Assembly: GCA_963750255.1 (NCBI GenBank)
Contig: CAVVPZ010000006.1
Coordinates: 346,776-410,775 of the forward strand
Direction of reading: 5' to 3'
DNA: 64,000 nt
DNA from: an uncultured Actinomycetes bacterium
GTDB taxonomy: Bacteria > Actinomycetota > Acidimicrobiia > Acidimicrobiales > CADCTF01
This document shows positions 2,948 through 59,892 of the stretch, piece by piece; within the stretch, counting starts at the first letter, position 1; each line of letters starts with the position of its first letter. The notes below the pieces were generated by a model. It saw nothing but the letters and a program-made list of their open reading frames with translations, was not told the origin of the DNA and searched no databases. The translations under genes were made by a program, and so were the position numbers.

Positions 2948-2973
2948 CGCCCACCGCCGCCGTCCCCATCCGA

Positions 2974-3087
2974 CCCCACACCCGTTGGTGTGGCCGTTCC
3001 GGTCGTTCCAACCCGTTGGTGTGGCCATTGCGGCCGCCGTTTCGGCCACGACAACGGGATGGAGCAGCCGTTTCGGCCACACCAACG
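2974..3087. repeat. nested-palindrome intergenic repeat, copy A
   Basis: 13-mer CGTTGGTGTGGCC at 2983-2995 and 3014-3026. Its reverse complement lies at 3044-3056 (2 mismatches) and 3075-3087 (perfect). About 90% identical over about 112 nt to 6060-6172. Confidence 0.85.
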
Positions 3088-5194: not shown

Positions 5195-6052
5195 GTGCAA
5201 TCGAAGGACGACGCCGGTCGGACTCGACAAGAGGCGCTGCATGCCTTGAGCGGCTGGGGGCTCGCCGACGCAGAGCGACCGGTCCTCCGCCGGTCGTTTT
5301 CGCGGGACGTCGCCGTCATGGTCGGTCGGGACGTGCGACGACTGCGGCGCTCGCCGCAGACGTTGTTCTTCGCGTCGGTTCAACCGGTGTTGTTCGTACT
5401 CGGTCTGACCGCCGTGTTCGGCACGCTGGTCGAGTCCGTTCTCGGCCAGCGCTACATCCAATTCCTCCTCCCGGGGGCGTTGGTCATGCAGGTCGCACTG
5501 GCGGCCGGAACCACCGGGGTCGGTTTGGCCTCAGATCTACAGGACGGGATCATCGACCGATTCCGGAGCCTGCCGATGTCGCCGCTCGCGGTGCTGATTG
5601 GGCGGACCACCACCGACTTGATCCGCAACGTGGCTGCGATTGCCGTGATGGTTGCCGCCGGTTTCGTACTCGGGTTCGAGCCCGGCGGCGGGTATCTCAG
5701 AAGTGCGATGGCGGTCGCGCTCGCTCTGACTTTCGGATATGCCGCCATCTGGGTGTTTGCCGCCGTCGGCCTGGCCGTCAAGGATCCGCAAGCCGCCACA
5801 TTTCTCGGCTTCGCCCCGGTCCTGCTCTTCGTCTATCTGTCGAGCGCGTGGGTTCCGATCGACACGATGAGTGCGGCGGTGCGCGGTTTCGCTCGCCACC
5901 AGCCCCTCAACGTCACCATCGAGGCGGTGCGGGGACTGGCCAACGGGACAAGCGCCACGGGTTCGATCCTTCAATCCCTGGCGTGGTCGGGCGCACTCAT
6001 CGTCGCCTTCGCATGGATCTCGTCGCGCCAGTTCCGACGGGCCACGTCCTAG
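5195..6052 (+). CDS. ABC-2 type transporter permease
   Basis: 285 aa, six predicted hydrophobic spans, RRLRRSPQTLFFASVQPVLFVLG N-terminal pattern typical of ABC-2 permeases. The start is uncertain because the frame stays open back to 5144. Confidence 0.8.
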   Translation: MQSKDDAGRTRQEALHALSGWGLADAERPVLRRSFSRDVAVMVGRDVRRLRRSPQTLFFASVQPVLFVLGLTAVFGTLVESVLGQRYIQFLLPGALVMQVALAAGTTGVGLASDLQDGIIDRFRSLPMSPLAVLIGRTTTDLIRNVAAIAVMVAAGFVLGFEPGGGYLRSAMAVALALTFGYAAIWVFAAVGLAVKDPQAATFLGFAPVLLFVYLSSAWVPIDTMSAAVRGFARHQPLNVTIEAVRGLANGTSATGSILQSLAWSGALIVAFAWISSRQFRRATS

Positions 6053-6059
6053 GTCCGTC

Positions 6060-6172
6060 CCCCACCACGTTGGTGTGGCCGTTCGGGTCGCTCCAACCCG
6101 TTGGTGTGGCCCTGGCGGCCGCCGTTTCGGCCACGACAACGAGATTGAGCAGCCTCTTCGGCCACGGCAACG
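6060..6172. repeat. nested-palindrome intergenic repeat, copy B
   Basis: CGTTGGTGTGGCC at 6068-6080 and 6099-6111. Inverted copies lie at 6129-6141 and 6160-6172. It sits between convergent genes. Confidence 0.85.
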
Positions 6173-6180
6173 GGGGAGGG

Positions 6181-7431
6181 CTATTCGGGGGTGACGCGGG
6201 CGATGAGGGCGACGGCCTTGTAGGCGGCCTCGGCCGGACCGAGTTCGTCGGGGCGCAACAGGTTGGCCATGATCCGCAGCACCCACTCCATGAGGGTGCG
6301 CGAGTGCATGCCAGTCGAGACGAGGGCACGCATGAGTTCGGGGCGACCGATGATTTTCACGAACGCCCGGGCCACCTTGTAATAGAGCCCGTAGGTGGCT
6401 TGGAGTTCGCGCTCGTAGCGCTGGAGGGCGAGGCCGTCGCCCGACAACAAAGCGTCGCTGAGCACCGACGCCGCAAGGCGTCCCGTCTCGTAGGCGTAGG
6501 CGATGCCTTCGCCATTGAACGGGTTGATGGCACCACCGGCGTCGCCGGTGACGAGGTAGGTCGGGCCGGCGTGGGGACCGACGGAGAACGCCATCGGTAG
6601 CCGGCCGCCGGTGGCCGGGCCGCACGACGTCTCGGGTGAGATCTCCCAGGACTTGGGGGCGTAGTCGACGAAGGCGTCCATCAGGTGGGAGGTGTTGACG
6701 GCCTTCCACTGGTTGAACGTCGAGAGCAGGCCGATGCCGACGTTGACCCGTCCGTCGCCCACGGGAAAGATCCATCCGTAGCCGGGCAGGACGTTGCCCG
6801 CCTTGTCGCGGATGTCGAGGTGGGACTCGATCCACGGCTCGTCGTGGCGAGGCGAGGTGTAGTACCCGCGAATGGCCATGCCCAGCGGGTAGTTGCGGTT
6901 GCGCGACGTGCCCAAGGCGCGGCCGAAGCGCGAGTTGGCGCCGTCGGCCACGACGACGAATCGAGCGCGGACTGCATCGATCCGGCCGCCCTCTGCCTTG
7001 CGCTTGATCGTCGCCCCCCGCACGAGGCCACCCTCGACCAAGGGAGCGATCGCCTCGGACTCCTGCCACAGGGTCGCGCCGGCCTTGACGGCTCGGTCGG
7101 CCACCATCTCGTCCAGATCGTGACGGGTTATCACGTAGCCGTAGTCAGGGAAGTCGGGGTGCGACGGCCACTCGAGTTCGAGCGTGCGGCCGAAGGCCAT
7201 CGACCGCAGGCCTGTGAAGCGATGCGCGTCGGCGGCCAGTCGGTCGCCGAGACCCATGTCTTCGAGTTGCTTGACCGAACGGGGCGTGAGGCCATCGCCG
7301 CAGGTCTTCTCGCGGGGGTAGCGCTTCTTCTCGACGAGCAACACGTCGTAGCCGGCCTCGGCCAGCCAATAGGCGCACGAAGCGCCGGAGGGCCCCCCGC
7401 CCACCACGAGGACGTCGGGGCGATCGCTCAT
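6181..7431 (-). CDS. geranylgeranyl reductase family FAD-dependent oxidoreductase (MenJ-like)
   Basis: 416 aa. DVLVVGGGPSGASCAYWLAEAGYDVLLVEKK dinucleotide fold, KTCGDGLTP, GDAGGAINPFNGEGI. Confidence 0.85.
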   Translation of the reverse strand: MSDRPDVLVVGGGPSGASCAYWLAEAGYDVLLVEKKRYPREKTCGDGLTPRSVKQLEDMGLGDRLAADAHRFTGLRSMAFGRTLELEWPSHPDFPDYGYVITRHDLDEMVADRAVKAGATLWQESEAIAPLVEGGLVRGATIKRKAEGGRIDAVRARFVVVADGANSRFGRALGTSRNRNYPLGMAIRGYYTSPRHDEPWIESHLDIRDKAGNVLPGYGWIFPVGDGRVNVGIGLLSTFNQWKAVNTSHLMDAFVDYAPKSWEISPETSCGPATGGRLPMAFSVGPHAGPTYLVTGDAGGAINPFNGEGIAYAYETGRLAASVLSDALLSGDGLALQRYERELQATYGLYYKVARAFVKIIGRPELMRALVSTGMHSRTLMEWVLRIMANLLRPDELGPAEAAYKAVALIARVTPE

Positions 7432-7445
7432 GACTCCAGTATCAG

Positions 7446-8129
7446 TCAGCTACCGGCAGATGCGGAATCGGCTCCCGCCTCAGGGGTCGCCGCCGGATCG
7501 CACTCAGGCGGGAGCGGGTCGGCCTTGCCGTAGTCGACTCGCTCGTGGCAGACGACGGCGATGACCTCGGCATCGGTGAGATCGGGGAAGGCGGGCATGC
7601 CGCCGGTGGCGATCTTGCCTGTGGCCCCGTAGGGCTGACCCTTGACCCCGGCCGAACCGCTGCGGACCCAGGCCACGTGGTCCTTGAAGTCGGGGAACGT
7701 CTTCAACACGCCGCCGAGGGCGGGACCGACGCCGCCGCCACCCGTCGGACCGTGGCAGCCCGAACAGCCCTGGGCCCGGTACACCGTCTGGCCGACCTGG
7801 ACGGGTCCCTCGACGGTCGAGGGTCGCTCGCCGAAGGCGCCGCCGTAGAGGACGGCCCACAACGGCAGCGCCACCAGCACCGGCATGGCCCACGCCGGGA
7901 CGCGCTGCTTGCGGGGAGGTGACGGCGGCGGCCCTGTGTACGGCGGCGGCACCGGTTCGCGCGGCGGCTGAGCTCCGCCGCCGCCGGCGGCAGCCGGGGT
8001 GGCCGCGGCGGCCGATTCGACCGCGCTCGACGTGGCGGCGCCCGCGGGTGCCTCGGCCGCCTCGCCGGTCATGGCGGAGCGGCGCTCTTTGGCACGGCGG
8101 AGGAGATGTTCAGGTACCTCGGTCAACAC
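7446..8129 (-). CDS. membrane-anchored monohaem c-type cytochrome
   Basis: Single CSGCH haem site, GGMPAF Met-ligand region, one TM (VPAWAMPVLVALPLWAVLYGG) after a Pro/Ala-rich linker. I chose GTG 8129 (or TTG 8126) rather than the track start 8258, by analogy with the MTEIPEHLL start of the 10099 gene. Confidence 0.8.
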   Translation of the reverse strand: MLTEVPEHLLRRAKERRSAMTGEAAEAPAGAATSSAVESAAAATPAAAGGGGAQPPREPVPPPYTGPPPSPPRKQRVPAWAMPVLVALPLWAVLYGGAFGERPSTVEGPVQVGQTVYRAQGCSGCHGPTGGGGVGPALGGVLKTFPDFKDHVAWVRSGSAGVKGQPYGATGKIATGGMPAFPDLTDAEVIAVVCHERVDYGKADPLPPECDPAATPEAGADSASAGS

Positions 8130-8297
8130 ATGCTCCCGACAAACGGGCAGTAGGGACGGGCGAATCGTAGGCGCGGGTCCTCCTGCATCACCAAGACGGT
8201 GAGCCAGGCGTGCGGAATGGGAGTCGTGCGAGGCGCCGTGGTAGAACCGCGGACACACCCCGGGGCGTTCGACCGAAGTACGCCTCGCCCCGGTAGA

Positions 8298-8315
8298 ATG
8301 TGATTCCGTTCACGA
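8298..8315. promoter_or_regulatory. TGTGA-N6-TCAC inverted repeat (Rex/CRP-type operator candidate) overlapping a TAGAAT -10-like hexamer
   Basis: ATGTGATTCCGTTCACGA at 8298-8315 matches 11 of 14 specified positions of TTGTGAA-N4-TTCACAA. TAGAAT lies at 8294-8299. Location is the divergent intergenic region between the cytochrome c gene and the respiratory array. Confidence 0.4.
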
Positions 8316-8833
8316 GAGGCAGAGAAGGGCCAAGGTTCAACGACGTGGTTGCGTTTCTCATCTCGCTTGTCCTCAGCGGCGGCATGATCGCCGTGATCCT
8401 CCGTGTGGGCAAGAACCGCCCGGTCGGGACACCGCTCACCTGGGGTGAGGCGTTCGTCGCCGCCATTTGGGTGTTCACCCTGCTCTTCCTGCTCTACGGC
8501 GTCGTGCCCCACCAGTTCCTGGCCTGGGCCGACAACGAACTCGAGTGGCGCTCCGACAAGATCGGCATCCCTCTCGGCCCGCTTGGCGGCGTGCTCAACG
8601 GCACCCTCGGCATCAAGAAGGGTCTGCTCTTCCCCAACGGCGTGCCGCTGCCCAATGGCACCTTCATCCTCACGGCCCAGGTGCTGCGCGACATCCTCGC
8701 GGCCGGCATCTACATCGTGTTCCTCTTGGCCCAGATCAAGATGTGGCTCTGGTGGCAGAAGCGTGATCAGGTGAAGACGGATCAAGGCGAGCTGACCTCA
8801 CCGTATGGACGCCCCCTGGTGCGGGGAAGCTGA
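8300..8833 (+). CDS. hypothetical integral membrane protein (first gene of the respiratory array)
   Basis: 177-aa ORF with 3-4 hydrophobic spans. I recognise no family. The true start may be GTG 8345, because 8300 abuts the -10-like hexamer and the palindrome. Confidence 0.6.
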   Translation: MIPFTRGREGPRFNDVVAFLISLVLSGGMIAVILRVGKNRPVGTPLTWGEAFVAAIWVFTLLFLLYGVVPHQFLAWADNELEWRSDKIGIPLGPLGGVLNGTLGIKKGLLFPNGVPLPNGTFILTAQVLRDILAAGIYIVFLLAQIKMWLWWQKRDQVKTDQGELTSPYGRPLVRGS

Positions 8834-8845
8834 GGATGTGCGCTG

Positions 8846-9259
8846 ATGGCTAAGACCGACGCCAACCCCCCGCTCCCGAACTTCCCGGGCGACTACGTCC
8901 TTCAGGAGATCGGCCCCGACGACCTCTCGAAGTCGGTCAAGCCAAAGCAGTTCCTCCACATCGACCAGGCCGAGTGCATCATGTGCGAGGGCTGTGTCGA
9001 CATCTGCCCGTGGAAGTGCATCCACATGCTCGACGCGGGCACGGTGGCCGAGTCGACCAACACCGAACAACCCGGCGTCGACCCCGACGATCACGTGATC
9101 TTCGTGGTCGACGAGGACGTGTGCACGCGGTGCGGCCTCTGCGTCGACCGGTGCCCGACAGGCGTGATCATCATGGGCAAGGCCGGGGTGGCGCCCCGCG
9201 AAGGCGACGCCCACCAACGCGACACCAAGCACGGTTTCGCTTACGGCATGCGGTTCTAG
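8846..9259 (+). CDS. 2x[4Fe-4S] ferredoxin-like protein
   Basis: 137 aa with CIMCEGCVDICP and CTRCGLCVDRCP cluster motifs. Confidence 0.85.
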   Translation: MAKTDANPPLPNFPGDYVLQEIGPDDLSKSVKPKQFLHIDQAECIMCEGCVDICPWKCIHMLDAGTVAESTNTEQPGVDPDDHVIFVVDEDVCTRCGLCVDRCPTGVIIMGKAGVAPREGDAHQRDTKHGFAYGMRF

Positions 9260-9296
9260 GAAGGTAGCGAGATGGCTGTGACAACTGGAGGAACGC

Positions 9297-10082
9297 GTGG
9301 CTAAGCGCATGAGCCTGAAGGACCGGCTCCCCAAGGCTCCCAAGCCGGCCGACATGGTCGACTACGTCCAGGGAAGTCAGCTGTGGTCGTCGATCTTCCG
9401 GCCCGGGTCGATCTTCCGCAAGGGCTACACCGACAGCCCTCGGAACCGGTCCTACGTGGTCATGAACTCGGTGCTGTACCACCTGCACCCGGTCAAGGTG
9501 AAGCGCCACGCGGTCAAGGTGAGCTACACGCTGTGCCTGGGCGGACTTTCGTTCTTCCTCTTCATCATCCTGACGGTCACCGGCATCTTCTTGATGTTCT
9601 TCTACCGACCGACGGCGGCCCAGGCGTGGAACGACATCGAGACCCTGCAGACGTCGGTGACGTTCGGGCTGTTGGTGCGCAACATGCATCGATGGGGTGC
9701 CCATCTCATGGTGATCTCGGTGTTCCTGCACATGGCCCGCGTCTTCTACCACGGGGCCTACAAGCCGCCCCGAGAGTTCAACTGGGTGATCGGCATCATC
9801 TTGTTGACGCTCACCTTGCTGCTGTCCTTCACCGGTTACCTGCTCCCGTGGGACCAGTTGGCGCTGTGGGCTGTGACCGTCGGCACCAACATGATGGGCT
9901 ACACACCCGTCTTCGGTCAGCAGGTCAGATTCGTGTTGCTCGGCGGGGTGGAGATCGGCACCGACACCTTGTTGCGCTGGTACGTCCTCCACGTCCTCAT
10001 GTTCCCGTTCGTCATCGTCATCTTCATGGCCATCCATTTCTGGAGGGTCCGGAAGGACGGCGGCATCTCCGGGCCGCTGTAG
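9297..10082 (+). CDS. cytochrome b6-type (N-terminal four-helix) cytochrome b
   Basis: 261 aa. RNMHRWGAHLMVISVFLHMARVFYHGAYKPPREFNW and HVLMFPFVIVIFMAIH supply the two H-x13-H haem ligand pairs. The ORF ends right after helix D. Confidence 0.9.
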   Translation: MAKRMSLKDRLPKAPKPADMVDYVQGSQLWSSIFRPGSIFRKGYTDSPRNRSYVVMNSVLYHLHPVKVKRHAVKVSYTLCLGGLSFFLFIILTVTGIFLMFFYRPTAAQAWNDIETLQTSVTFGLLVRNMHRWGAHLMVISVFLHMARVFYHGAYKPPREFNWVIGIILLTLTLLLSFTGYLLPWDQLALWAVTVGTNMMGYTPVFGQQVRFVLLGGVEIGTDTLLRWYVLHVLMFPFVIVIFMAIHFWRVRKDGGISGPL

Positions 10083-10098
10083 GAAAGGTCGAACTCCG

Positions 10099-10830
10099 AT
10101 GACCGAGATCCCCGAACACCTCCTCAAGCGAGCGCAGGCCCGCAGGGCCGAGAAGGCCGCCGGCGGTGACGCCGCCCCGGCCGACGCCGGTGCCGGTGCG
10201 ACCGATGACGGCGACAAGATCCCGGCGCGCTTGCTCACCGGCGAAGCCGGCCCCGGTGGCGGCACGGCGACGGCCACCGTCGCTCGGCCCGCGGCCCCGA
10301 CGGCCACCGGTCCGGCCGGCACCGCCGCCGGTCACACGCAACGCCTTCTCACCGTCGTCAAGGCGGGTTCGATCCAAGACGTCAAGGCGGTGCCGACCGA
10401 CAAGGTCCACGTCTGGCCCCACCTCATCGTCGTCGAGTTCGTCTCGGCGTTGGCGATGACGTGCTTCTTGCTCGTCTTCTCGACCTTCGTCAACGCCCCG
10501 CTGTTGGGCATGGCCAACTTCAACCTCACGCCCAACCCGTCGAAGGCGCCGTGGTACTTCCTCGGCCTCCAGGAACTGCTCACCATGTTTCACCCCATGG
10601 TCGCCGGCGTGACCATTCCGGGTATGGGCCTGATCGTGCTCGGCGCTGCCGGTTACATCGACAAGAACCCGTCGAACAAGCCGGAGGATCGCAAGTTCAC
10701 CATTGCCATGATGACGGTCTTCCTCATGTTCTGGGCCACCCTCGTCATCATCGGATCCTTCTTCCGCGGCGAGGGCTTCAACTTCATCATGCCTTGGGTC
10801 CAGGGCGTCCACGAGATCTTCGACCTCTAA
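10099..10830 (+). CDS. cytochrome b C-terminal part / subunit IV (PetD-like) with a long N-terminal extension
   Basis: 243 aa. KAPWYFLGLQELL (PEWY-loop equivalent) and three TM spans follow a roughly 95-aa Ala/Gly/Pro-rich extension starting MTEIPEHLLKRAQARR. Confidence 0.85.
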   Translation: MTEIPEHLLKRAQARRAEKAAGGDAAPADAGAGATDDGDKIPARLLTGEAGPGGGTATATVARPAAPTATGPAGTAAGHTQRLLTVVKAGSIQDVKAVPTDKVHVWPHLIVVEFVSALAMTCFLLVFSTFVNAPLLGMANFNLTPNPSKAPWYFLGLQELLTMFHPMVAGVTIPGMGLIVLGAAGYIDKNPSNKPEDRKFTIAMMTVFLMFWATLVIIGSFFRGEGFNFIMPWVQGVHEIFDL

Positions 10831-10840
10831 AGAGAGACGA

Positions 10841-11695
10841 ATGACCACCACCACCATCCTCGGACTCGCCGCCGTCGTCCTCGTCGTGCTCGGCGGGCTG
10901 TTCGCCTTCGCAACCACGCGCGCACGCGACCGGGCCTCGGCCGTCGGAGCGCTGTCTCGCGAGACCCGTTCTCGCGACAAGGGCCGCACCCGCACCGCCG
11001 CCGGCACTGAAGAACCCGCAGCGACCGGCCGTGAGGTCGAGCGCTCCGCTGCGCTGGCCCGCACTGGCGGAGGCACGCTGGTCGAGACCAAGCCCGCACC
11101 GCCCGCCATCCCGCTGCCCGCCGATCCTGAGACCTACGGCGTCACCCGTCGCCAGTTCTTCAACCGAGGCATCACCGCCTTCTTCGCCCTCGGCCTGGCC
11201 GGCTTCGGCACGGCCACGATCGGCTTCCTCTGGCCCACCCTCAAGGGCGGTTTCGGCTCGAAGATCCGGGCCGGGAAACTCGACGACATCCTGCGCGACA
11301 TCGACGACAAGAAGGAACCCTTCTACGTTCCCGAGGGCCGCTTCTACATCAACCCCTTCCCCAAGGATGATCTCGACAAGGCGTCGAAGGCGTACGCCGG
11401 CGGTGTGCTCGAGGGCATGCAGGACGGCGTCGTGGCGCTGTATCAAAAGTGCGTCCACCTCGGTTGTCGCGTCCCGTGGTGCAAGTCGTCGCAGTGGTTC
11501 GAGTGTCCTTGCCACGGATCGCAGTACAACCGGGTCGGTGAGAAGAAGGGCGGTCCGGCTCCCCGTGGTCTGGATCGCTTCGCCGTCTCCGTCGATGGCG
11601 GCGTCGTCGTCGTCGACACCGGCGCGCTGAGCCAGGGCCCGCCCATCGGAACCAACACCACCGGTCAGGAAGCTGAGGGGCCGCACTGCGCATGA
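10841..11695 (+). CDS. Rieske [2Fe-2S] subunit (actinobacterial QcrA-like)
   Basis: CVHLGCRVPW and CPCHGSQYN boxes. An internal twin-arginine TRRQFFNRG is preceded by an extra N-terminal TM. Confidence 0.9.
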   Translation: MTTTTILGLAAVVLVVLGGLFAFATTRARDRASAVGALSRETRSRDKGRTRTAAGTEEPAATGREVERSAALARTGGGTLVETKPAPPAIPLPADPETYGVTRRQFFNRGITAFFALGLAGFGTATIGFLWPTLKGGFGSKIRAGKLDDILRDIDDKKEPFYVPEGRFYINPFPKDDLDKASKAYAGGVLEGMQDGVVALYQKCVHLGCRVPWCKSSQWFECPCHGSQYNRVGEKKGGPAPRGLDRFAVSVDGGVVVVDTGALSQGPPIGTNTTGQEAEGPHCA

Positions 11696-12730
11696 TCTCG
11701 CTCGCCCAACCCACGACCCTCGTCGTCGGCTCCGCCGTCGAGCGCGCCGGCTGGCTGCTCGGCGCCGTCACGATCATCGTGATGATCGCCTACTTCGTGG
11801 TGACGTTCCGCTACCGCGATCCCGACGAGGACCGCACCGCCGAGGCCGAACTCGCGCCCAACCGCAAGCCCTACCTCGATGACGAGGCCCTCGAAGGCCG
11901 CCGTCTCGAGCGTGCGCTCGGCTGGGCCCTCGTCCTGTTGATCGTCGCCGCCATTGGGCCGCTCGTCTACTGGCTCAACGAGCCCGGCCGGCAGGCCGGG
12001 GCCATCGCCGAGTTCGACAGCAAGGCTGTCGAGCGGGGACGGCAGCTCTTCCAGCCCACCGACTCACCCGAACACGGCGCCCACTTCGGTTGCGCGACCT
12101 GCCACGGTCCCCAGGGCCAGGGCGGCGTGACGAAATACACGATCACCGACTACCTCGGCACGACCCGTCAGGTCTCGTGGGCCGCTCCCGCGATCGACAC
12201 GGCACTGTTGAAGTTCTCGCCCGACGAGGTGCAAACCATCCTCACCTACGGCCGGGCCAACAGCCCGATGCCGGCCTGGGGCGTGGCCGGCGGCGGCCCG
12301 ATGAACGACCAACAGATCACCGACCTCGTCGCCTATCTCGACAGCATCAAGCTGACGCCCGCCGAGGCCCGCAAACGCACCATGGCGCGACGCCGAGCAG
12401 CAGGCGAAGACCGACGGCAAGTCGAGCGTCGACGGCGAGACGCTGTTCAAGACCAACTGCGCCCGTTGCCACACCAAGGGCTGGTCCTACGGCGAGCCGT
12501 CGATCATGGGCGGCGGCGCCTTCGGGCCGAATCTCACCGGCGGCGACACCCTGCGTCAGTTCCCCGACCGAGACACGATGGTCGACTTCATCACCAACGG
12601 CTCCGAGTACGCCAAGCCCTACGGCGTCCGCGGCGTCGGCGGCGACGAGGGCGGCGGCATGCCGGGCTTCGGCCAGGTGCTCACCGCCGAGCAGATCCAA
12701 GCCATCATCGACTACGAGCGAGGCCTCTAG
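11692..12730 (+). pseudogene. dihaem c-type cytochrome (QcrC-like), one frame break as assembled
   Basis: First haem site CATCHG is in the frame of 11692. The second site, NCARCHT, and the C-terminus (track ORF 12506..12730) are in the +1 frame. The switch lies between 12370 and 12385 (AAA run at 12373-12375). Confidence 0.85.
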
Positions 12731-13588
12731 ATGACCGCGCAGCTCCTCGCTGCACTTGCCTGGGACCCGCAGATCCGCGGCGCGTTGATCGTGGTGACCG
12801 CGTTCACGATCCTTCCTGGCAGCGTGTACCTCCTCCTCGCCACCAACACTGGCGCCAAGCTGGGATTCCTCCTCGCCGCCGCCGGGCTCACAGGCTGGAT
12901 GGCGGTCATGGGTTGGATCTGGGTGGCATACGGCATCGGCATCAAGGGCGACCCGCCCACGTGGCACGTCGAAGAGGTCGTCACGGGCAAGGTGGCCGAA
13001 AACGGCACCACCGATGAGGTGGCCACGTTTCCGGCCGGTTGGCGCAAGCTCAAGACAGGCGACGCCATCCTCGGCGACGCCACCGCATCGGCTGACAAGG
13101 TGCTCGCTCCGAGCACGAGCAGTGGCGGCCACGGCGGGAGCGAGGCCGCCGTTCCGGTGACGCCGGTCTACGACAGCCCGGCCGACTACGTGCAGGTCGG
13201 CGGCTACGCCAAGGGCGGGGAGAATTACTGGCTCCCCGGCGGTGGCTTGGCCAGCGAGACGAGCATCGGCAACCCGGGCACCAACGTGTTCTCGAAGTTG
13301 ATCGAACGGCTCAAGCGTGGCCCGTTCCACGCCCCGCACTACGCCGTCATTCAGGTGCAACCGACCCTCAAGCAACAAACGATCACCGGGGTTCCGCCCG
13401 CGCCGGCGCCGGATCCGACCAAGGCCGTGAGTTCGGTGGTCATGGTCCGTGACCACGGCGACCTCAGGTTCCCGTCGACGATGGTCGCCATCTCGATGTC
13501 CATCGTGTTCGGGCTGGTGGTCAATGCACTCCACCGCCGTGACCTCGAAATCATGCGCCAGCGCGCCAACGCGCCGGCCGCCGCCTGA
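12731..13588 (+). CDS. hypothetical membrane protein between the bc-type module and nuoA
   Basis: 285 aa. ATG abuts the preceding stop (TAGATG). Two N-terminal TMs and one C-terminal TM flank a soluble roughly 170-aa domain. I recognise no family. Confidence 0.6.
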   Translation: MTAQLLAALAWDPQIRGALIVVTAFTILPGSVYLLLATNTGAKLGFLLAAAGLTGWMAVMGWIWVAYGIGIKGDPPTWHVEEVVTGKVAENGTTDEVATFPAGWRKLKTGDAILGDATASADKVLAPSTSSGGHGGSEAAVPVTPVYDSPADYVQVGGYAKGGENYWLPGGGLASETSIGNPGTNVFSKLIERLKRGPFHAPHYAVIQVQPTLKQQTITGVPPAPAPDPTKAVSSVVMVRDHGDLRFPSTMVAISMSIVFGLVVNALHRRDLEIMRQRANAPAAA

Positions 13589-15193: not shown

Positions 15194-16521
15194 GCCGCAC
15201 CGACGGTTTCGCGGCCGAGACCTCCGAGGGCGCCCAAGAGATGCGGGGCCGTAGCCAGACCGACGGCACCGAACTGCTCATGGAGCGCGGCGCCGTCCTG
15301 AGACTTCCGGAAGGTCACACGCTGTCGATCGACGACATCTCCATCGAGGTCGACGAAGACGAGACCATGATCATCAACATGGGGCCGCAGCACCCGAGTA
15401 CCCACGGCGTGCTGCGGGTGATGATGGAACTCGAGGGCGAGCAGGTCATCCGCTCCAAGCCCGTCATCGGCTACCTCCACACCGGCATGGAGAAGACGGC
15501 CGAGGACCTGATGTACATCCAGGGGTCGACCAACGTCACCCGGATGGACTACCTGGCCAACTTCCACAACGAGACTGTGCTCTCGATGGCCGTCGAGTCG
15601 CTCCTCGGCATCGACGTTCCGGATCGGGCCACCTGGATCCGGATGCTCCTGATGGAGCTCAACCGGGTCTCATCGCATCTGCTCTTCATGGCCACCAACG
15701 GCATGGACGTCGGCGCAGTGTCGATGATGATCTTCGGGTGGCGCGAGCGCGAGTTGGTGCTCGCCTTCTTCGAGAAGGTCACCGGACTCCGGATGAACTA
15801 CAACTTCATTCGACCCGGTGGCGTGGCCGCCGACCTGCCTGCCGGCTGGCGCGACGACGTGCTCGAACTGTGCGATCTGATCCTGCCTCGGCTCGACGAG
15901 TACGACGAGCTCTTGACCGGCCAGCCAATCTTCCAGCAGCGCACCCAGGGCGTGGGCGTCATCACCGCCGAGCAGGCCATCGCCCTCGGCGCATCTGGTC
16001 CGATCCTCCGCGCCACCGGACATCCGTGGGATCTTCGCTCCGACCTGCCCTACATGTTCTACGACCAGATCGACTTCGACGTCATCGTGGGCCAGTACGG
16101 CGACGCCTTCGACCGCTACGCGGTGCGCCTCAACGAGATGCGCGAGTCGATCAAGATCGTTCGCCAGATCGTCGACCTGATGCCGGCCGGCGATTACCGC
16201 ATCCAGGACAAGAAGGTCACGCCCCCTCCCCGGGCCCGGATCGACGAGTCGATGGAAGCCCTCATCCACCACTTCAAGCTCTTCACCGAGGGGTTCAAGG
16301 TGCCTGAGGGCGAGGTCTACGTGAGCATCGAGGCCCCCCGCGGCGAACTCGGCTGCTATCTGGCGTCGGACGGCACGGCCAAGCCGTACCGCATGCACAT
16401 CCGCGGTCCGTCGTTCGCCAACCTTCAAACGTTGCCGGTCATGCTCAAGGGCGGCCTGGTCGCCGACGCCGTGGCCGTCATCTCATCGATCGACCCTGTG
16501 ATGGGAGACGTGGACCGCTGA
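15190..16521 (+). CDS. nuoD: NADH-quinone oxidoreductase subunit D
   Basis: ATGA overlap with nuoC. MIINMGPQHPSTHGVLR and the C-terminal SIDPVMGDVDR. Confidence 0.95.
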   Translation: MSRTDGFAAETSEGAQEMRGRSQTDGTELLMERGAVLRLPEGHTLSIDDISIEVDEDETMIINMGPQHPSTHGVLRVMMELEGEQVIRSKPVIGYLHTGMEKTAEDLMYIQGSTNVTRMDYLANFHNETVLSMAVESLLGIDVPDRATWIRMLLMELNRVSSHLLFMATNGMDVGAVSMMIFGWRERELVLAFFEKVTGLRMNYNFIRPGGVAADLPAGWRDDVLELCDLILPRLDEYDELLTGQPIFQQRTQGVGVITAEQAIALGASGPILRATGHPWDLRSDLPYMFYDQIDFDVIVGQYGDAFDRYAVRLNEMRESIKIVRQIVDLMPAGDYRIQDKKVTPPPRARIDESMEALIHHFKLFTEGFKVPEGEVYVSIEAPRGELGCYLASDGTAKPYRMHIRGPSFANLQTLPVMLKGGLVADAVAVISSIDPVMGDVDR

Positions 16522-16570
16522 TGAGCGAAGCGAACGGCTTGCCCGCCCGTGCGAAGCACTGGAGGCACTG

Positions 16571-17162
16571 ATGGCCCGCTTGACGAAGGACAACGAAGCC
16601 CGCGCCCGGCACACGATGTCGCTGTATCCGCAGGTCCGCTCGGCGCTGATTCCCATGCTCCACCTCGTGCAGGAGCAGGACGGCTACCTCACGCGGGACG
16701 GCATGGTTCACGTGGCCGAGCTCCTCGACCTGACTCCCGCCGAGGTGTACGGCACCGCCAGCTTCTACGACATGTTCTTCTCCCATCCGGTGGGCAAGTA
16801 CCTCGTCTCGGTGTGCACCAACATCGCCTGCCTCCTCAACGGCGGCCAGCGAAGTGCTCGAACACGCCGAGGATGCGCTCGGCGTCCAAGCCGGCGGCAC
16901 GACCGAGGACGGCGAGTTCACGCTCGAAGAGGTCGAGTGCATCGCCTTTTGCGGCAACGCTCCGTGCCTGGCGGTGAACTGGCGGTTCTTCGGCGACGTC
17001 ACCAACGACTTCTTCGATCGCTCGTCGACGACCTCGAGTCGGGTCGGCTGGCGGAATCGGTTCCGAGCCACGGGACGCTCCCTGAGCCGCGTGCGGCGAG
17101 TTCCGAGCCTCGTCAGCGCAGACGCCGACCGACCCGACGACACGAGCGGGGAGCGCAAGTAG
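16571..17162 (+). pseudogene. nuoE: NADH-quinone oxidoreductase subunit E, about 3 frame breaks as assembled
   Basis: LIPMLHLVQEQDGYL and VCTNIACLLNGG are in one frame. EVLEHAEDALGV...ECIAFCGNAPCLAVN is in a second frame. LVDDLESGRLAESVPSHGTL returns to the first, then SRVRR...stop at 17162 returns to the second. Switches lie near 16848, 17018 and 17080. Confidence 0.85.
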
Positions 17163-18491
17163 TGCCCATCACCGACGTCGACAAGATCGTCACCCGACGG
17201 ATCGGCATCCCCGAGAGTTGGACGCTGCGTAGCTACCTCGAAAACGGGGGATACGACGGGTTGCGGAAGGCGCTCGAGATCGGTCCGGAGCAAGTGCAGG
17301 CCGAGGTCGATACCGCCAACCTCCTCGGTCGCGGCGGCGCGGGTTTCGAAGCCGGGAAGAAGTGGTCGTTGCTGCGCGACGCCACCCGCAGTATCTCGTC
17401 ATCAATGGCGACGAGAGCGAGCCGTCCACATTCAAAGATCACATGCTCCTCGAGAACGACCCGCACCAGATCATCGAGGGCACGATCATCACTGCGTTAC
17501 GCCATCCGCGCATCGCAGGCATTCATCTACGTGCGTGGCGAGTTCGCCCTCGGCATCGAGCGCATGATGAGCGCAGTCAACGAGGCGTACGAGCACGGGG
17601 CGCTCGGCAGCGAACATCTTCGGTTCCGGGTTCGACCTCGACCTCGTGATCCACCCGGGCGCCGGGGCGTACATCTGTCGGTGAGGAGACTGCGCTGCTC
17701 GAAAGTCTCGAGGGCAAGCGTGGGTTCCCGCGGATCAAGCCCCCCTACTTCCCCGCCGTATCGGCCTCTACGGCGCTCCGACCGTCGTCAACAACGTCGA
17801 GACGATGTCGAACATGCCATGGATCGTCCGCAACGGCGGCGCCGCGTTCGCAGCGCTCGGCGCGGGCCGCACGCACCGGTACCCGAATCTTCGCGGTTTC
17901 CGGCCACGTCAACAAGCCGGGCAACTACGAGGTCGAGATGGTCAAGACCACCTTTCGCGACATCATCTACGACCCCAAGTCCGGTGCCGGCATCCGCGGC
18001 GGCGAGAGTTGAAGGCGTTCATCCCTGGCGGCGCGCTCCGCACTGGTTCGGGCCGCGAGCAACTCGACATGCCGCTCGGGAGAACAAGGTCGGGGAGCGA
18101 GGGCGGCTCGAGGAGGGGGTCGGGATCGGTGATCGTGCCATGGACGACACGACGTGCATGGTGCGGGCCGTCGTGGCGCCTCGTCCGGTTCTTCGCCCGG
18201 GAATCCTGCGGGCAAGTGCACCCGTGTCGGGAAGGCACTCGGTGGCTCGACAAGATCATGCACCGCATCGAGTCGGGGGACGGCCGGATGGAGGATCTCG
18301 ACCTGCTCCTACGGACGTCTGCGACAACATCGCCCCGGCGTGCAATGGCCGTCGAAGTGGCCGCCGAACATGACCACATCTGCCCGTTGGGGCCGTCGAT
18401 CCCGCCTCCGATCGTCTCGGCGCTCCGCATGTTCCGCGACGAGTTCCTGACCCACAATCAAGGACGGAGCCTGAGCCCGTCGGATGCCTGA
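17162..18491 (+). pseudogene. nuoF: NADH-quinone oxidoreductase subunit F, about 19 frame breaks as assembled
   Basis: GTG 17162 overlaps the nuoE stop (TAGTG). Conserved blocks are scattered over all three frames: [147 protein letters not shown]. Confidence 0.85.
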
Positions 18492-18525
18492 GTCGACGTG
18501 AGACTCCTGTGCCGAACGGAAAACG

Positions 18526-21129
18526 GTGACGATCACCGTCGACGGCAAGCCGGTCGAGGCCAAGAAGGGCGAGATGATCATCGCCGCCGCCGAGCGCGCC
18601 GGCACCTACATCCCCCGGTTCTGTTATCACCCGCGCATGCGGCCCGTGGGCATGTGCCGGATGTGTCTCGTGCAGGTCGTCGGCCCTCGGGGCCCCCAGC
18701 TCCAGCCTGCGTGCTTCGTGCCGGTCGCCGACGGCCAAGAGGTCATCACCGACTCTCCGGCGGTGAAGAAGGCCCAGGACGGTGTCCTCGAGTTCCTTCT
18801 CGTCAACCATCCCCTCGACTGCCCGGTGTGCGACAAGGGCGGCGAGTGCCCGTTGCAGGACCAGACCTACGCGTTCGGCCCCGGCGAGACTCGATTCGTC
18901 GAGGAGAAGCGGCACTGGGAGAAGCCGATCAACCTTTCGCCGCTGGTGCAGATCGACCGCGAGCGGTGCATCCAGTGCGATCGCTGCACCCGCTTCGCTG
19001 ATGAGGTTGCCGGCGACGCGCTGATCGAGTTCATCGGTCGCGGGGCCAAGACCGAGGTCAACACCTTCCCCGATCAACCCTTCTCGTCGTACTTCAGCGG
19101 CAACACGGCCCAGATCTGCCCCGTCGGCGCCCTCGTCACCGTTCCCTACCGCTTCCGGGCCCGTCCGTGGGACCTCGAGCAGGTCGAGAGCACGTGCACG
19201 CAGTGCTCGGTCGGTTGCCGAGTTGCTGTGCAGTCGTCTCGCGACGAGCTCACCCGCTACCTCGGCCTCGACAGCGACCCGGTCAACCACGGTTGGCTCT
19301 GCGACAAGGGCCGCTTCTCCTACGAAGCCGTCAACAGCAGCGAGCGTTTGGGTCAGCCGCTCGTCCGCTCGGGTGACTCGCTGGTGCCGGCGGCCTGGTC
19401 CGACGCGCTCGACGCCGCCGCGCTGGCACTCGGCGACGCTCGTACCGGGTTCGGCGGCGAGTCGATCGGGGTCATCGGCGGCGCCCGCCTGCCCAATGAA
19501 GACGCCTACGCGTGGGCCAAGCTGGCCAAGGGTGTCCTCGGCACCGACTCCGTCGACTGTCAGCTGGGCGACGGGCTTCCGGCTGAGGTCATCCTCGGCA
19601 TGGCCCGGGCGACGATCGACGACCTCGACTCGGCGTCGGCCATCGTGCTCTTGTCGCCCGACGTCAAAGAAGAGCTTCCCGTGCTCTATTTGCGACTTCG
19701 GGCTGCCGCCGTCGACCACAAGGTTCGGATCGTCGAGTTGACCCCAACTCGCACGGGTCTGACCCGCTACACCAGCCAGACCATCGGGTACCGGCCCGGC
19801 GAAGCCGTCGGCGCCGTTCGTCAACTGCTCGACTCCGACGTCGACCTCGGCGATTGTCCCGTCGTCGTGCTCGGTCGTCCGTCGCTCGGCGAGTCGGCCG
19901 ACTCCGTCGTCGAAGCTGCCGCCGCTCTGGCCGCGCTGCCCGGCGTCACGTTTCTCTCCGCCCTCCGGCGGGGCAACGTCCACGGCGCCCTCGACGCCGG
20001 CCTGGCGCCCGGGTTGCTTCCCGGCCGCGTCGGCCTCGAGTCGGGTTCGTCATGGTTCGCCGACGGCTGGGGTCGTGTGCCCGAAGGCCGAGGCCGCGAC
20101 ACCGAGGGCATCTTGCGGGCCGCCGCGGCCGGCGAACTCCAGGCGCTGATCCTGCTCGGCGCCGACCCGCTGGCCGACTTCCCCGACCGCGAACTCGCAC
20201 GCACCGCGCTCGAGCGGGCGCCGTTCGTGCTGTCGATCGACATCTTCTCCAGCGAGTCGACGCGCATGGCCGACGTCGTGCTCGCCGCCGCCACCTTCGC
20301 CGAGCGCCCGGGCACGACCACCAACCTCGAAGGTCGCGTCACCCGCCTGGGCCAAAAGACCACCGCGCCCGAGGTCGCGTGGCCCGACTGGATGATCGCC
20401 GTCGAACTCGCCGCCCGCCTGGGTGAGAACCTCGGCTTCCTCTCCCTCGAGGAGATCGCGGCCGAGATGGAACGCCTGTCGACGGTGCACGCCGGCCTCA
20501 CCCCCGAGGTCCTCAACGCCCGCGCCTTCCGCGACGGCGTGCTCGTGCCAATGGCGACGGCTGCCGCCCACACCCACTCGGGCATCGACGCCAGCGCCGA
20601 CCCCATGTCGACGCCCGGCGTCCTCCACGTCGAGGAGCAGGGCGCCACCGTCGACGTCGCCGAGGCCCCAGCCGACCCGGCCGAGGAGTCTGACGACTCG
20701 CCTGAGGAGTCCGCCGCCGAGGGCGCGGTCGAGCCTGGCCCGTCGCGACCGGCGATGCTCTCATGGGATCCGACGGCGGTGTCGGCCACGCACGCGCCCA
20801 AGGTCGACGCCTACAAGACGCGCCTCGTCGTCGGTCGCAAGCTCTACGACGCAGGGGTGATGTTGCGCATGTCTCCCTCGCTGGCACCGCTGGCGGCGCC
20901 CCCGGTGCTGCGGGTCCATCCGAGCGACCTCGAGCGGCTCGGCGTGGGCGATGGCGGGCGGGTCCGGCTCCGGTCCAAGCGTCTCACGGTAGACACCATC
21001 GAGGTCGAAGCCGACGTCTTCCAACCTCGGGGCACGGCCGGGATCCCGTACAACCTGCCCGGGCTCGACACTTCGCTGCTGTTCAGCGTCGACGCCCCGG
21101 TGGTCGAAGTCGACTTGGAGTCGGTGTGA
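18526..21129 (+). CDS. nuoG: NADH-quinone oxidoreductase subunit G
   Basis: 867 aa, intact. N-terminal 2Fe-2S fold (IPRFCYHPRM..GMCRMCLV), HPLDCPVCDKGGECPLQD, CIQCDRCTRF, CPVGAL. Has a long acidic insertion near the C-terminus. Confidence 0.93.
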   Translation: MTITVDGKPVEAKKGEMIIAAAERAGTYIPRFCYHPRMRPVGMCRMCLVQVVGPRGPQLQPACFVPVADGQEVITDSPAVKKAQDGVLEFLLVNHPLDCPVCDKGGECPLQDQTYAFGPGETRFVEEKRHWEKPINLSPLVQIDRERCIQCDRCTRFADEVAGDALIEFIGRGAKTEVNTFPDQPFSSYFSGNTAQICPVGALVTVPYRFRARPWDLEQVESTCTQCSVGCRVAVQSSRDELTRYLGLDSDPVNHGWLCDKGRFSYEAVNSSERLGQPLVRSGDSLVPAAWSDALDAAALALGDARTGFGGESIGVIGGARLPNEDAYAWAKLAKGVLGTDSVDCQLGDGLPAEVILGMARATIDDLDSASAIVLLSPDVKEELPVLYLRLRAAAVDHKVRIVELTPTRTGLTRYTSQTIGYRPGEAVGAVRQLLDSDVDLGDCPVVVLGRPSLGESADSVVEAAAALAALPGVTFLSALRRGNVHGALDAGLAPGLLPGRVGLESGSSWFADGWGRVPEGRGRDTEGILRAAAAGELQALILLGADPLADFPDRELARTALERAPFVLSIDIFSSESTRMADVVLAAATFAERPGTTTNLEGRVTRLGQKTTAPEVAWPDWMIAVELAARLGENLGFLSLEEIAAEMERLSTVHAGLTPEVLNARAFRDGVLVPMATAAAHTHSGIDASADPMSTPGVLHVEEQGATVDVAEAPADPAEESDDSPEESAAEGAVEPGPSRPAMLSWDPTAVSATHAPKVDAYKTRLVVGRKLYDAGVMLRMSPSLAPLAAPPVLRVHPSDLERLGVGDGGRVRLRSKRLTVDTIEVEADVFQPRGTAGIPYNLPGLDTSLLFSVDAPVVEVDLESV

Positions 21130-55904: not shown

Positions 55905-55965
55905 GCGGTCATCTTGGCTCCCGGGGCCCGGACCGCGCTCGGGAACGCGTCGCTAGGCTCGGCTC

Positions 55966-57932
55966 ATGCCTGCTGAGCCGACGATCGAGGCCTACCTCCT
56001 GGAGAACCGCACGTTCCCCCCGCCGCCCGACTTCGTGGCCAACGCGCTGGTGAGCGACCGAGTCGATGTACGACGCCGGCGACGCCGATCCCGAGGCGTT
56101 CTGGGCCGAGCAGGCCGGGCCAACTCGACTGGTACGAGCCCTGGCACACCGTGAGTTCGTGGGAGCTCCCGTTCGCCAAGTGGTTCGTCGGCGGCACGCT
56201 CAACGTCTCGGTCAACTGCCTCGATCGCCACGTCGACGCCGGCCGCGGCGACCAGGTGGCCTTCCACTGGGAGGGCGAGCCCGGCGACACCCGCACGATC
56301 ACCTACGCCGACCTGCTCGACGAGGCGCAGCGGTTCGCCAACGTGCTGAAGTCGCTCGGCGTCGCAGCGGGGCGACCGGGTCGACATCTACATGCCGATG
56401 ATCCCCGAGCTGCCGGTGGCGATGCTGGCCTGCGCCCGCATCGGCGCGCCGCACTCGGTCGTCTTCGGCGGGTTCTCGCGCCGACTGCGCTCCGCGACCG
56501 CATCAACGACGCCGAAGCCAAGGTGCTCATCACGGCCGACGGCGGCTTCCGGCGCGGGGCCGCCGGTGCGCTGAAGCCCAACGCCGATGCCGCCGTCGAA
56601 GGCACGCCCACCATCGAGCACGTCGTCGTCGTGCGCCGCACCGGCGGCGACGTCACGATGCACGAAGGGCGCGACCACTGGTACCACGAGCTCATGGTCG
56701 AGGCGGCCGACCCGGTCTGCGAGCCGGAGCGGATGGCGAGCGAGGACCTGCTGTACCTGCTCTACACGTCCGGCACCACCGGCTAAGCCCAAGGGGATCA
56801 TGCACACCACGGGCGGCTACCTGACCCAGGTGGCGTTCACCCACCGTTACGTGTTCGACCTCCATCCCGAGACCGACGTCTACTGGTGCGCGGCCGACAT
56901 CGGCTGGGTCACCGGCCACAGCTACATCGTCTACGGCCCGCTCGCCAACGGCGCCACCAGTCGTGATGTACGAGGGCACGCCGGACACGCCCGACAAGGA
57001 CCGCTTCTGGGACATCGTCGAGCGCTACGGGGTCACGATCCTCTACACCGCGCCCACCGCGATCCGCACGTTCATGAAGTGGGGTACCGAGTACCCCGAC
57101 GCGCCACGACCTGTCGTCGCTGCGCCTGCTCGGCTCGGTCGGCGAGCCCATCAACCCCGAGGCGTGGATGTGGTACCACGAGCACATCGGCGGCGGCCGC
57201 TGCCCGGTCGTCGACACGTGGTGGCAGACCGAGACCGGCGCCATCATGATCGCGCCGCTCCCGGGCGTCACCACGACCAAGCCCGGGTCGGCCACCCACC
57301 CGCTGCCCGGCATCGGCGCCGAGCTCGTCGACGAGGCCGGCGACAAGGTCGACGTGGGCGGCGGCTACCTCACGCTCACCCGGCCGTGGCCGTCGATGCT
57401 GCGCGGCATCTACGGCGACCCCGAGCGCTACCGGGAGACCTACTGGAGCCGGTTCGAGGGCCGCTACTTCGCCGGCGACGGCGCCAAGCTCGACGACGAC
57501 GGCTACCTGTGGCTGCTCGGCCGGGTCGACGACGTGATGAACGTGTCCGGCCACCGCATCTCGACCACCGAGGTCGAGTCGGCGCTCGTCGACCATCCCG
57601 CGGTGGCCGAGGCGGCCGTCGTCGGTGCCAACGACGACACCACCGGCCAGGCGATCGTCGCCTACGTGACCCTGCGAGGCGGCCACGAGCCGAGCGACGA
57701 GCACGGCCAGCAGCTGCGCAGCCACGTCGCCACCAAGATCGGCGCCATCGCCCGGCCGAAGACGATCGTCTTCACCGACGACCTGCCCAAGACCCGGAGC
57801 GGCAAGATCATGCGCCGCCTCCTGCGGGACGTGGCCGAGGGCCGCGACCTCGGCGACACCACCACCCTCGCCGACCCGGCGGTCGTCGAGGAGATCAAGC
57901 GTCGGGCCGCCACCAACCCGACCGAGGAATGA
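55966..57932 (+). pseudogene. acs: acetyl-CoA synthetase, about 7 frame breaks as assembled
   Basis: Conserved blocks are spread over three frames: [66 protein letters not shown]|[13 protein letters not shown] (an inserted T creates TAA at 56784-56786), [41 protein letters not shown]. Switches lie near 56060, 56118, 56369, 56480, 56784, 56960 and 57102. Confidence 0.9.
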
Positions 57933-58432
57933 GGCCCGAGCAGGTCCCCGACAATTGGCACTGGAGAGCCGGCCCCGTCACGGGCGGGCCGCCGTCGTCT
58001 TCGACATCGACGGCGTGCTGTCCGACGCCGTCGGCCGCCAGCACTTCATCGAGGGCGGCGGTCGGCGCAAGGACTGGGAGGCGTTCTTCGAGGCGTGCGG
58101 GGACGACGCGCTGATCGAGGAGGTCGGCCGCGCTCCTCGGACTGCTCGACCCGGCCTGCGGATCGTGCTGCTCACCGCCCGGCCGATCCGGGTGCAACCC
58201 CAGACCGTCGGCGTGGCTCGACCGGTACGAGCTGCGTTGGGACCTGCTCGTCATGCGCGACTTCGGCGACTACACCGCCGCCCGCGAGTTCAAGCGCTGG
58301 ACGATCGCCGACTGCGCGCGTACGGCTTCGACCTCCGGTTGGCCTTCGAGGACGACCGCCGCAACGTCGACATGTTCCGCGGCCGAGGGCATTCCCTGCG
58401 TCTACATCCACAGCGGCTACTACGACACCTGA
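57929..58432 (+). pseudogene. HAD-superfamily phosphatase-like protein, at least 4 frame breaks as assembled
   Basis: ATGA overlap with the acs stop. [12 protein letters not shown] (DxDG motif I), IVLLTARP (motif II), WLDRYELRWDLLVMRDFGDY..., FEDDRRNVDMFRAEGIPCVYIHSGYYDT. The stop at 58430-58432 is readable only by switching frames. Confidence 0.6.
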
Positions 58433-58507
58433 GCCGCCGGGGTGCTCGCGCCCACGTCGCCTCGGCGGGGAAGCACGATCGTGACGAGGAGCGTTGATCC
58501 AGTCGTC

Positions 58508-59389
58508 ATGAGCAAGAACACGATCAAGACCTTCGTCCTGCTCGCCGCCCTCGGCGGCTTGCTCGTGCTGGTCGGCGGGGTCTTCGGCGGACCGAGCGGC
58601 GCCGTCATCGGCCTCGGCCATCGGCCTGGTCTCGTCGGCGGCTCGTACTGGTTCACCGACAAGCTCGCCATCAAGGCCGCCCGGGCCGTGCCGGTGACCG
58701 AGGCCGAGATGCCCGAGTACTACTCGGATCGTCCGCGAGCTGACCCAGCGAGCCGGCATGCCGATGCCGAAGCTCTACGTCACGCCCGACCAGCAGCCCA
58801 ACGCCTTCGCCACCGGCCGCAACCCCGAGCACGCGGCCGTCGCCGTCACCCAGGGCATCCTCGAGATCCTCGACTGGGACGAGCTGCGGGGCGTGCTGGC
58901 CCACGAGATCAGCCACGTCGGCAACCGCGACATCCTCATCGGCTCGGTCGCCGCCGCCGTCGCCATGGGGATCACGTTCATCGCCCGCATGGTGATGTGG
59001 GGCGCGATGTTCGGTGGCATGGGCGGCAACGACCGCGACCGGCGCGGCGGCGGCATCGGCATCCTCGTCCTCGCCCTGCTCACCCCGATGGCCGCCAGGC
59101 CTGCTGCAGATGGCGCTTCAGCCGCAGCCGGGAGTTCGAGGCCGACCGCAGCGGCGCCCGCCTCATCGGCGACGGCGAGCCGCTGGCCCGGGCCCTCGAG
59201 AAGCTCGAGGCCGGCGCCCGCCGCATCCCGATGGACGTCGACCCGGCCCAGGCCCAGGCCTACATCGTCAACCCGCTCAGCGGGCGCAAGGTGCAGTTCG
59301 CCAACATGTTCCGGAGCCACCCGCCGACCGCGGACCGCGTCGCCCGGCTCCGTGGCCGTGAATGGCTCGACGACGGCCTGATCCGCTGA
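58508..59389 (+). pseudogene. htpX: zinc metalloprotease HtpX, about 5 frame breaks as assembled
   Basis: Reads like mycobacterial HtpX. RIVRELTQRAGMPMPKLYV..PNAFATGRNP..., the HEISH zinc motif in VLAHEISHVGNRDIL, SRSREFEADRSGA and [14 protein letters not shown] are distributed over three frames. Switches lie near 58618, 58635, 58728, 59092 and 59115. Confidence 0.88.
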
Positions 59390-59399
59390 CCCAGCCGGG

Positions 59400-59892
59400 C
59401 TAGTCCCGGAAGTTCTGGAACTGCAGCGGGATGCCGAGGTCCTCGCCCTTGAGCGCGGCGATCACCGCTTGGAGGTCGTCGCGCTTCTTGGCCGTGACCC
59501 GCAGCTGTTCGCCCTGGGTCTGCGACTGCACGCCCTTGAGGCCGAGGTCCTTGATGAACTTGTTGATCGCCTTGGCCTTGTCGCTCGAGATGCCGGCCTT
59601 GAGCGTGATGATCTGGCGGACGGTGCCCTTCGAGGCCTCCTCGACCTTGCCGTAGTCGAGGGCCTTGAGCGAGCACCTGGCGCTTCACCAGCTTCTCCTC
59701 GAGCACCTGCACGCAGGGCTCGCAGCCGGTCCTCGTGACGACGTGGCGAGCTTGATCTCGTGGTCGTCGAGCTCGATCGAGCGAGTCGGTGTCCTTGAAG
59801 TCGAAGCGGGTGGCGATCTCGCGCTGGGCCTGGTCGACGGCGTTGCGGACTTCCTGCATGTCGACCTCGGACACGACGTCGAAACTGGGCAT
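59400..59892 (-). pseudogene. yajQ: YajQ-family nucleotide-binding protein, about 4 frame breaks as assembled
   Basis: [33 protein letters not shown], then [32 protein letters not shown], and [90 protein letters not shown]. The sequence is readable only with frame switches near 59780, 59737, 59715 and 59676. Confidence 0.85.

Follow-up and report, generated by a model that had tools for sequence, protein, structure and literature searches.

A run of frameshifts in nuoE and nuoF of an Acidimicrobiales contig is very probably an assembly artefact

The frame switches that break nuoE and nuoF in this contig are very probably base-calling or consensus errors left in the assembly, rather than mutations of the organism, as judged from sequence comparison. 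We favour an artefact over loss of the NADH-oxidising module (N-module) of complex I because the same kind of damage recurs in a second patch, 38 kb away, where it breaks four unrelated genes. Both patches cross gene boundaries and the second involves genes on both strands, and so the cause belongs to stretches of the contig and not to particular genes. As the storm of frameshifts is not specific to nuoE and nuoF, the view that the module has really been lost is deprived of its main support.

The window, by which we mean the whole stretch of 64,000 nt that was analysed, has a GC content of ~0.68. Its nuo genes are nearest to those of Acidimicrobiales (Actinomycetota) metagenome-assembled genomes (MAGs), the best locus among representative genomes being L001, with a NuoD 90% identical to that of the window. 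On the + strand, nuoA (13604) to nuoN (~28906) form an operon of 14 genes, in the order nuoA-D, E, F, G, H-N. Directly upstream of nuoA, a cluster at 8345-13582 encodes a Fer4 protein, a split cytochrome b (N and C parts), a Rieske protein and a cytochrome c, and is syntenic with locus L082 at 76-98% amino acid identity. Nearer the start of the window, two copies of a 119-nt element (2969-3087 and 6054-6172, 87% identical) flank a block of ~3 kb; the first copy contains a 44-nt inverted repeat with arms at 2983-3026 and 3044-3087.

Results

The frames of nuoE and nuoF were followed with a purpose-written protein-to-DNA aligner, which allows frame changes of 1 and 2 nt and was given NuoE and NuoF of the closest relatives, L001 and L082, against positions 16400-18700. 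In this frameshift-aware alignment the conserved blocks of both proteins fall in differing frames. A global DNA-DNA alignment to L001 was tried for placing the indels and rejected as too noisy at 84% nucleotide identity, the protein-guided alignment being used instead. Two reference-free HMMs, one built on GC by codon position (GC3) and one on codon usage trained on the window's intact genes, recovered the same nuoE and nuoF frame switches. The features of this first patch are as follows.

16850..18518, no strand assigned: patch 1, ~22 net frame switches, from the frameshift-aware alignment, the GC3 and codon HMMs and nucleotide-level alignments.
16571..17162, + strand: nuoE, the 2Fe-2S subunit, with switches at 16850 (+1), 17019 (-1) and 17078 (+1) in the frameshift-aware alignment.
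17162..18491, + strand: nuoF, the FMN and N3 subunit, with 16-19 switches (the count varies with the frameshift penalty) between 17384 and 18472, plus compensated pairs.
18485..21129, + strand: nuoG, probable true start ATG 18485, body intact from ~18520, by alignment to L081 and L082.

The original prediction of about 22 frame switches proved right in number by both alignment and HMMs, and their clustering is beyond chance: 22 events occupy 1669 nt, where an even spread of the 45 verified events would put 1.2 (P ~1e-20). This corresponds to ~13 frame switches per kb, or ~1 per 25 codons. Nucleotide-level alignments, with compensated pairs included, raise the count to roughly 30 single-base indels; such pairs are seen in these alignments, whereas protein alignment scores them as substitutions. 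The patch starts in nuoE past 93 clean codons and stops 12 codons into nuoG.

As deposited, neither nuoE nor nuoF is a single ORF. Gene prediction would probably yield instead a 600-aa ATG ORF at 16571-18373, a chimera in which 93 genuine NuoE codons run on into out-of-frame sequence. After frame correction, NuoE still encodes both cysteine pairs (VSVCTNIAC and ECIAFCGNAPC), and nuoF starts at a GTG that overlaps the nuoE stop. The best database matches of corrected NuoF are intact 442-aa NuoF proteins at 84% identity, which bear PF01512 and PF10589. One compensated pair falls within the cluster-binding motif at 18207-18227, which had earlier been read as CGQVHPC and repaired to CGKCTPC. Nucleotide alignment bears out a +1/-1 pair at this place, 18214 (+A) with 18222 (-1); the closest relatives, however, have CGQCTPC and not CGKCTPC, and repair to either motif costs one deletion and one insertion.

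The flanking nuo genes, which had been described as intact, are so for nuoA-D, nuoH-M and the body of nuoG, but not for the first 12 codons of nuoG, which carry 2 shifts. Alignment to L082 revealed no internal frameshifts in nuoA-D or nuoH-M; apparent terminal frameshifts in nuoA, nuoB and nuoM were rejected as alignment end effects at divergent C-termini. In relatives, nuoG starts at an ATG overlapping the nuoF stop. ATG 18485 does the same in the window, and is split from the nuoG body by shifts at ~18499 (+1) and 18515-18518 (+2), so that the start aligns with L081 and L082 as MPEST\ETPVPN/KTVTITVDGK. The C-terminal part of nuoG has 0 frameshifts against L081. Two candidate frameshifts at 20557 and 20717, seen against L082 and absent against L081, were dismissed as an alignment artefact in a low-complexity linker.

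The original claim that the damage is confined to nuoE and nuoF did not survive: patch 1 extends to ~18518, a second storm occupies 56062-59781, and the cytochrome c gene (cytC) is shifted at ~12382. The second storm was first flagged by rapid frame switching in the codon HMM, and its features were established from Pfam profile segments split across frames, alignment to proteins of L083 and L084, and nucleotide context.

56062..59781, no strand assigned: patch 2, ~22 frameshifts that affect four neighbouring genes, on both strands, and leave 57100-57929 as a clean island.
55963..57932, + strand: acetyl-CoA synthetase (ACS), 7 frameshifts at 56062, 56117, 56364, 56485, 56781, 56962 and ~57096; last 275 codons clean.
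57923..58429 (ends approximate), + strand: HAD/PNKP-type phosphatase, 6 frameshifts at 57992, 58126, 58154, 58210, 58307 and 58381.
58508..59389, + strand: M48 peptidase, 5 internal frameshifts at 58616, 58632, 58724, 59097 and 59119.
59400..59892, - strand: YajQ/DUF520, 4 frameshifts at 59673, 59716, 59735 and 59781.
11710..12730, + strand: cytochrome c gene, one isolated +1 at ~12382, from a codon-HMM frame change without a stop codon and alignment to the cytC of L082.

Parts 80-175, 176-234, 237-276 and 305-382 of the AMP-binding profile match consecutively in four different ORFs, and the Peptidase_M48 and DUF520 profiles are also split over frames. The four genes of patch 2, which lies 38 kb from patch 1, are unrelated to nuo. 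Overall, 44 of the 45 verified events fall within 8.4% of the window, and the other ~17 kb of coding sequence that was checked against homologs is free of them. Neither repeats nor inverted repeats were found at the patch boundaries, and the GC content within the patches is not unusual.

The window contains further sites at which the codon model changes frame without a stop codon. One, at ~54997, probably marks a further indel, and patch 2 may start there; it lies in an L,D-transpeptidase-like gene (54036-55542, PG_binding_1 and YkuD) that also contains four 126-nt tandem repeats at 54263-54752. Others, at ~41067 (- strand), ~40169, 43499-43654, 33901-33965 and 60275-60330, may be isolated indels or model noise; for the switches at ~41067, ~40169 and ~33901, Pfam scans of the ORFs at 33-42 kb gave no decision. 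As a result of the cytC shift, a 441-aa ORF at 11692-13017 runs into the region of the next gene.

The disrupted ORFs could also be read as real and very recent pseudogenisation, in which the N-module (NuoE, NuoF) of the 14-subunit complex I has been lost and an EFG-less nuo operon is relied on, with ACS, HAD, M48, YajQ and cytC decaying in parallel, as in genome reduction. Such an operon is at hand, for the window carries, as originally predicted, an apparently intact set without E, F and G at 42633-52901, made up of nuoA, B, C, D, H, I, J, K, L, M and N, each a single ORF with the expected Pfam domains. Its presence has no bearing on the function of nuoE and nuoF. Our protein and metagenome searches, moreover, found no same-species sequence that contradicts pseudogenisation: corrected NuoF had no match above 84% identity among 5.8 billion proteins, a metagenome scan with the variable NuoC returned no same-species contig (best match 68-82%), and exact-protein matches to NuoD, NuoC and NuoI, which would mark a second assembly of the species, were nil. 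We nevertheless regard pseudogenisation as very unlikely, on the grounds of constraint, indel spectrum, position and relatives that are set out below.

Constraint on the corrected genes is not relaxed. Frame-corrected NuoE and NuoF contain 0 in-frame stops, so that the original description of conservation without stops or substitutions is accurate for stops; for substitutions it is accurate only insofar as they are no more frequent than in intact neighbours. Among columns invariant in nine relatives, 5 of 218 are changed in corrected NuoF, 2 of 256 in NuoD and 0 of 193 in NuoH; two of the five in NuoF are the compensated pair in CGQCTPC, and another two lie next to frameshift sites. Away from indels, NuoF is 86% identical to L082, which is within the 85-93% range of the intact subunits; NuoD reaches 88.5%, NuoI 88.8%, and NuoL and NuoM 85%. 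NuoE, likewise, is 80.6% identical to L082 over its clean codons 1-93 and 81.5% over codons 94-175, which lie within patch 1. We considered excess substitution as the cause of NuoF reaching only 84% identity to the L082 clade where NuoH reaches 93%, and rejected it, as outgroup identity is only ~2 points lower and the invariant columns are kept.

Counted by codon position, the nucleotide differences are 39:21:141 in nuoF, 52:26:143 in nuoD and 40:15:147 in nuoH. Third positions thus make up 70% of the differences in nuoF, like in the intact nuoD and nuoH, and the fraction that changes amino acids is also like that of the neighbours. This third-position bias indicates that purifying selection acted on nuoF up to the present. 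Drift long enough for 20 or more indels would have erased the codon-position signature. Nor does neutral decay account for ~22 indels in 1.7 kb that are not matched by an excess of substitutions. The marks of relaxed selection expected of a genuine pseudogene, namely excess nonsynonymous change, loss of invariant residues or stops, were not found.

The indels themselves also differ from those of natural pseudogenes. All frame-changing events in the patches are of 1-2 nt, none larger, and insertions outnumber deletions by ~33:13 in the aligner's calls, in which 2-nt calls are readable either way. A, C, G and T were all seen as inserted bases, with no shared motif and with shifts in both directions, and many sites lie outside homopolymers, for example CTG[T]CGG, TT[A]CGCC and CAG[T]CGTG. 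A set of 151 curated bacterial pseudogenes, from lineages aged roughly 10-15 Myr, contained 696 indels, ~4.6 per gene, with 396 deletions against 300 insertions and with small deletions skewed to multiples of 3; pseudogenes also accumulate nonsynonymous changes faster (PMC6054270). The spectrum of natural pseudogenes, deletion-rich, varied in size and with few indels per gene, is not that of the patches, in which indels are insertion-rich and confined to 1-2 nt.

Damage in the window tracks position rather than gene. Codons 1-93 of nuoE and the clean end of ACS are spared, and in nuoG nothing beyond the first 12 codons is affected. Pseudogenisation would have been favoured by damage limited to the module, or by parallel damage in relatives; instead ACS, HAD, M48, YajQ and cytC are hit too, and among the 79 related loci that match NuoF, 71 have a nuoF that is single-frame and full-length.

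Four related loci do have a frameshifted nuoF (L018, L020, L042 and L055), and all four carry 'MFD...contig_' record names. Over 8000-13300 of L020 there are 6 frameshifts in nuoF, and nuoG and nuoH are also split or broken, while nuoA-E are clean. In L083, gene calls at 5000-12300 are split for ACS, M48, PEPcase and PhoX. Many of the top ACS matches on very long contigs are also truncated.

Together, the selection signature, the indel spectrum, the positional patches and the similar runs in other MAGs support the original preference for local indel errors over a real loss of the N-module.

Discussion

These data allow us to propose how the patches could have come about. The contig, from Acidimicrobiales and probably metagenome-assembled, would contain short stretches whose consensus never got properly corrected. 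Read depth may have dropped locally, a stretch may have rested on a single noisy long read or a few of them, or it may have lain beyond the reach of the polishing reads. Within such stretches single bases would be randomly inserted or dropped every ~55-170 nt, with clean sequence between them. Two stretches may have stayed near raw long-read quality while the remainder of the contig was corrected; patch 1 would by chance fall on the greater part of nuoE, the whole of nuoF and the first nuoG codons, and patch 2 on ACS, HAD, M48 and YajQ. For the real genes we expect single open frames that encode ordinary NuoE and NuoF, and on the corrected reading the underlying nuoE and nuoF are ordinary genes, intact in design.

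What would be expected of an assembly error was observed: events of 1-2 nt in arbitrary context, a normal product restored by correction, and errors that follow position. As to technical cause and platform, we infer that the patches are most likely long-read sequence that escaped correction. Their excess of insertions and non-homopolymer contexts tentatively suggest noisy continuous long reads over a typical Nanopore consensus. Two points count against an artefact. The ~13 switches per kb of patch 1 are high for a polished consensus and need near-raw read quality, and neither repeats nor GC content explains why those two places failed.

If the indels were nonetheless real, an unknown tract-wise mutagenic process would have hit tracts of 1.7 and 3.7 kb, knocking out the N-module together with ACS and its neighbours, and the EFG-less 11-subunit operon would then be the sole intact complex-I-type enzyme; we hold this to be highly improbable. 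A specific form of this idea is patchwise indel hypermutation, in which the two tracts were very recently resynthesised in an error-prone manner, for example by mutagenic gap-filling after a break, and selection has yet to act. The sharp edges of the 1.7 and 3.7 kb tracts, which ignore gene boundaries and strand, would suit such an event, and the lack of excess substitutions would suit a very recent one. A cell losing NuoE, NuoF, ACS and the M48 protease together would, however, have to dominate the sampled population, and the appearance of the same signature at other positions in other public MAGs points to method error over biology. To our knowledge, no bacterial polymerase or repair pathway gives ~1% random single-base insertions with few substitutions. 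Hypermutation of this kind strikes us as extremely improbable.

Recoding, by which programmed ribosomal frameshifting, transcriptional slippage or insertion/deletion RNA editing would let the genes be expressed, borrows its appeal from blocks that alternate in frame every ~70 nt and superficially resemble cryptogenes repaired at the RNA level, and is vanishingly improbable given 20 or more sites per gene, in both directions, with all four bases and no shared slippery or homopolymer motif, shift sites conserved in none of the related loci compared, four unrelated genes affected on both strands, and no such system known to us in bacteria.

The frameshift storm in nuoE and nuoF is almost certainly not a biological feature, and its worth is as a warning for annotation and metabolic inference. 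Taken at face value, the locus would suggest an actinobacterium with a complex I lacking its NADH-oxidising module, which would be a mistaken conclusion. Consensus errors that come in patches can look like gene-specific decay, and the two can be separated by tests that need only the sequence: the codon-position signature, counts of invariant columns, the indel spectrum, and position set against gene. Annotation of this contig needs frameshift-aware correction, and the chimeric ORF of 600 aa at 16571-18373 should not be passed on. Truncated genes should be treated with suspicion when metabolism is inferred from this genome.

Several known systems bear comparison with the window. The pseudogenes of Burkholderia leaf-nodule symbionts, which have reductive genomes, resemble it in that multiple small indels break ORFs beside intact genes; they differ in their excess of nonsynonymous change, their deletion-rich and broadly sized indels and the small number of indels per gene, none of which is seen in the patches (PMC6054270). 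The operon at 42633-52901 has the gene set of the 11-subunit nuo operons that lack nuoEFG, but the copy in the window sits beside a 14-subunit operon and does not replace it.

The closest likeness to the patches themselves is to the frameshift errors of long-read and hybrid assemblies, as addressed by the IDEEL test and proovframe, in which indels of 1-2 nt split conserved genes and protein-guided alignment restores a full-length conserved product (PMC9262707; bioRxiv 10.1101/2021.08.23.457338). Indels in long-read assemblies lead to frameshifted gene calls above all below ~40x coverage (PMC9262707), and low depth or local heterogeneity can leave regions unpolishable (bioRxiv 10.1101/2021.08.23.457338), the severity of such errors being tied to local depth and polishing. 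Simulated raw nanopore sequences contain roughly 1 frameshift per 30 codons (proovframe preprint, bioRxiv 10.1101/2021.08.23.457338), near the ~1 switch per 25 codons of patch 1, and frameshift runs also occur in the Acidimicrobiales MAG loci L018, L020, L042, L055 and L083. The window differs from such assemblies in that its errors are confined to two sharp patches and not spread along the contig. It also departs from the usual Nanopore consensus profile, that of homopolymer deletions, as its patches are dominated by insertions and many of the errors lie outside homopolymers. Beneath the patches, the corrected NuoE and NuoF align end to end with those of relatives and match the N-module of the 14-subunit NADH:quinone oxidoreductase (PF01257, PF01512, PF10589), retaining GRGGAGF, GAGAYICGEETAL and the cluster-binding cysteines within the nuoA-N gene order.
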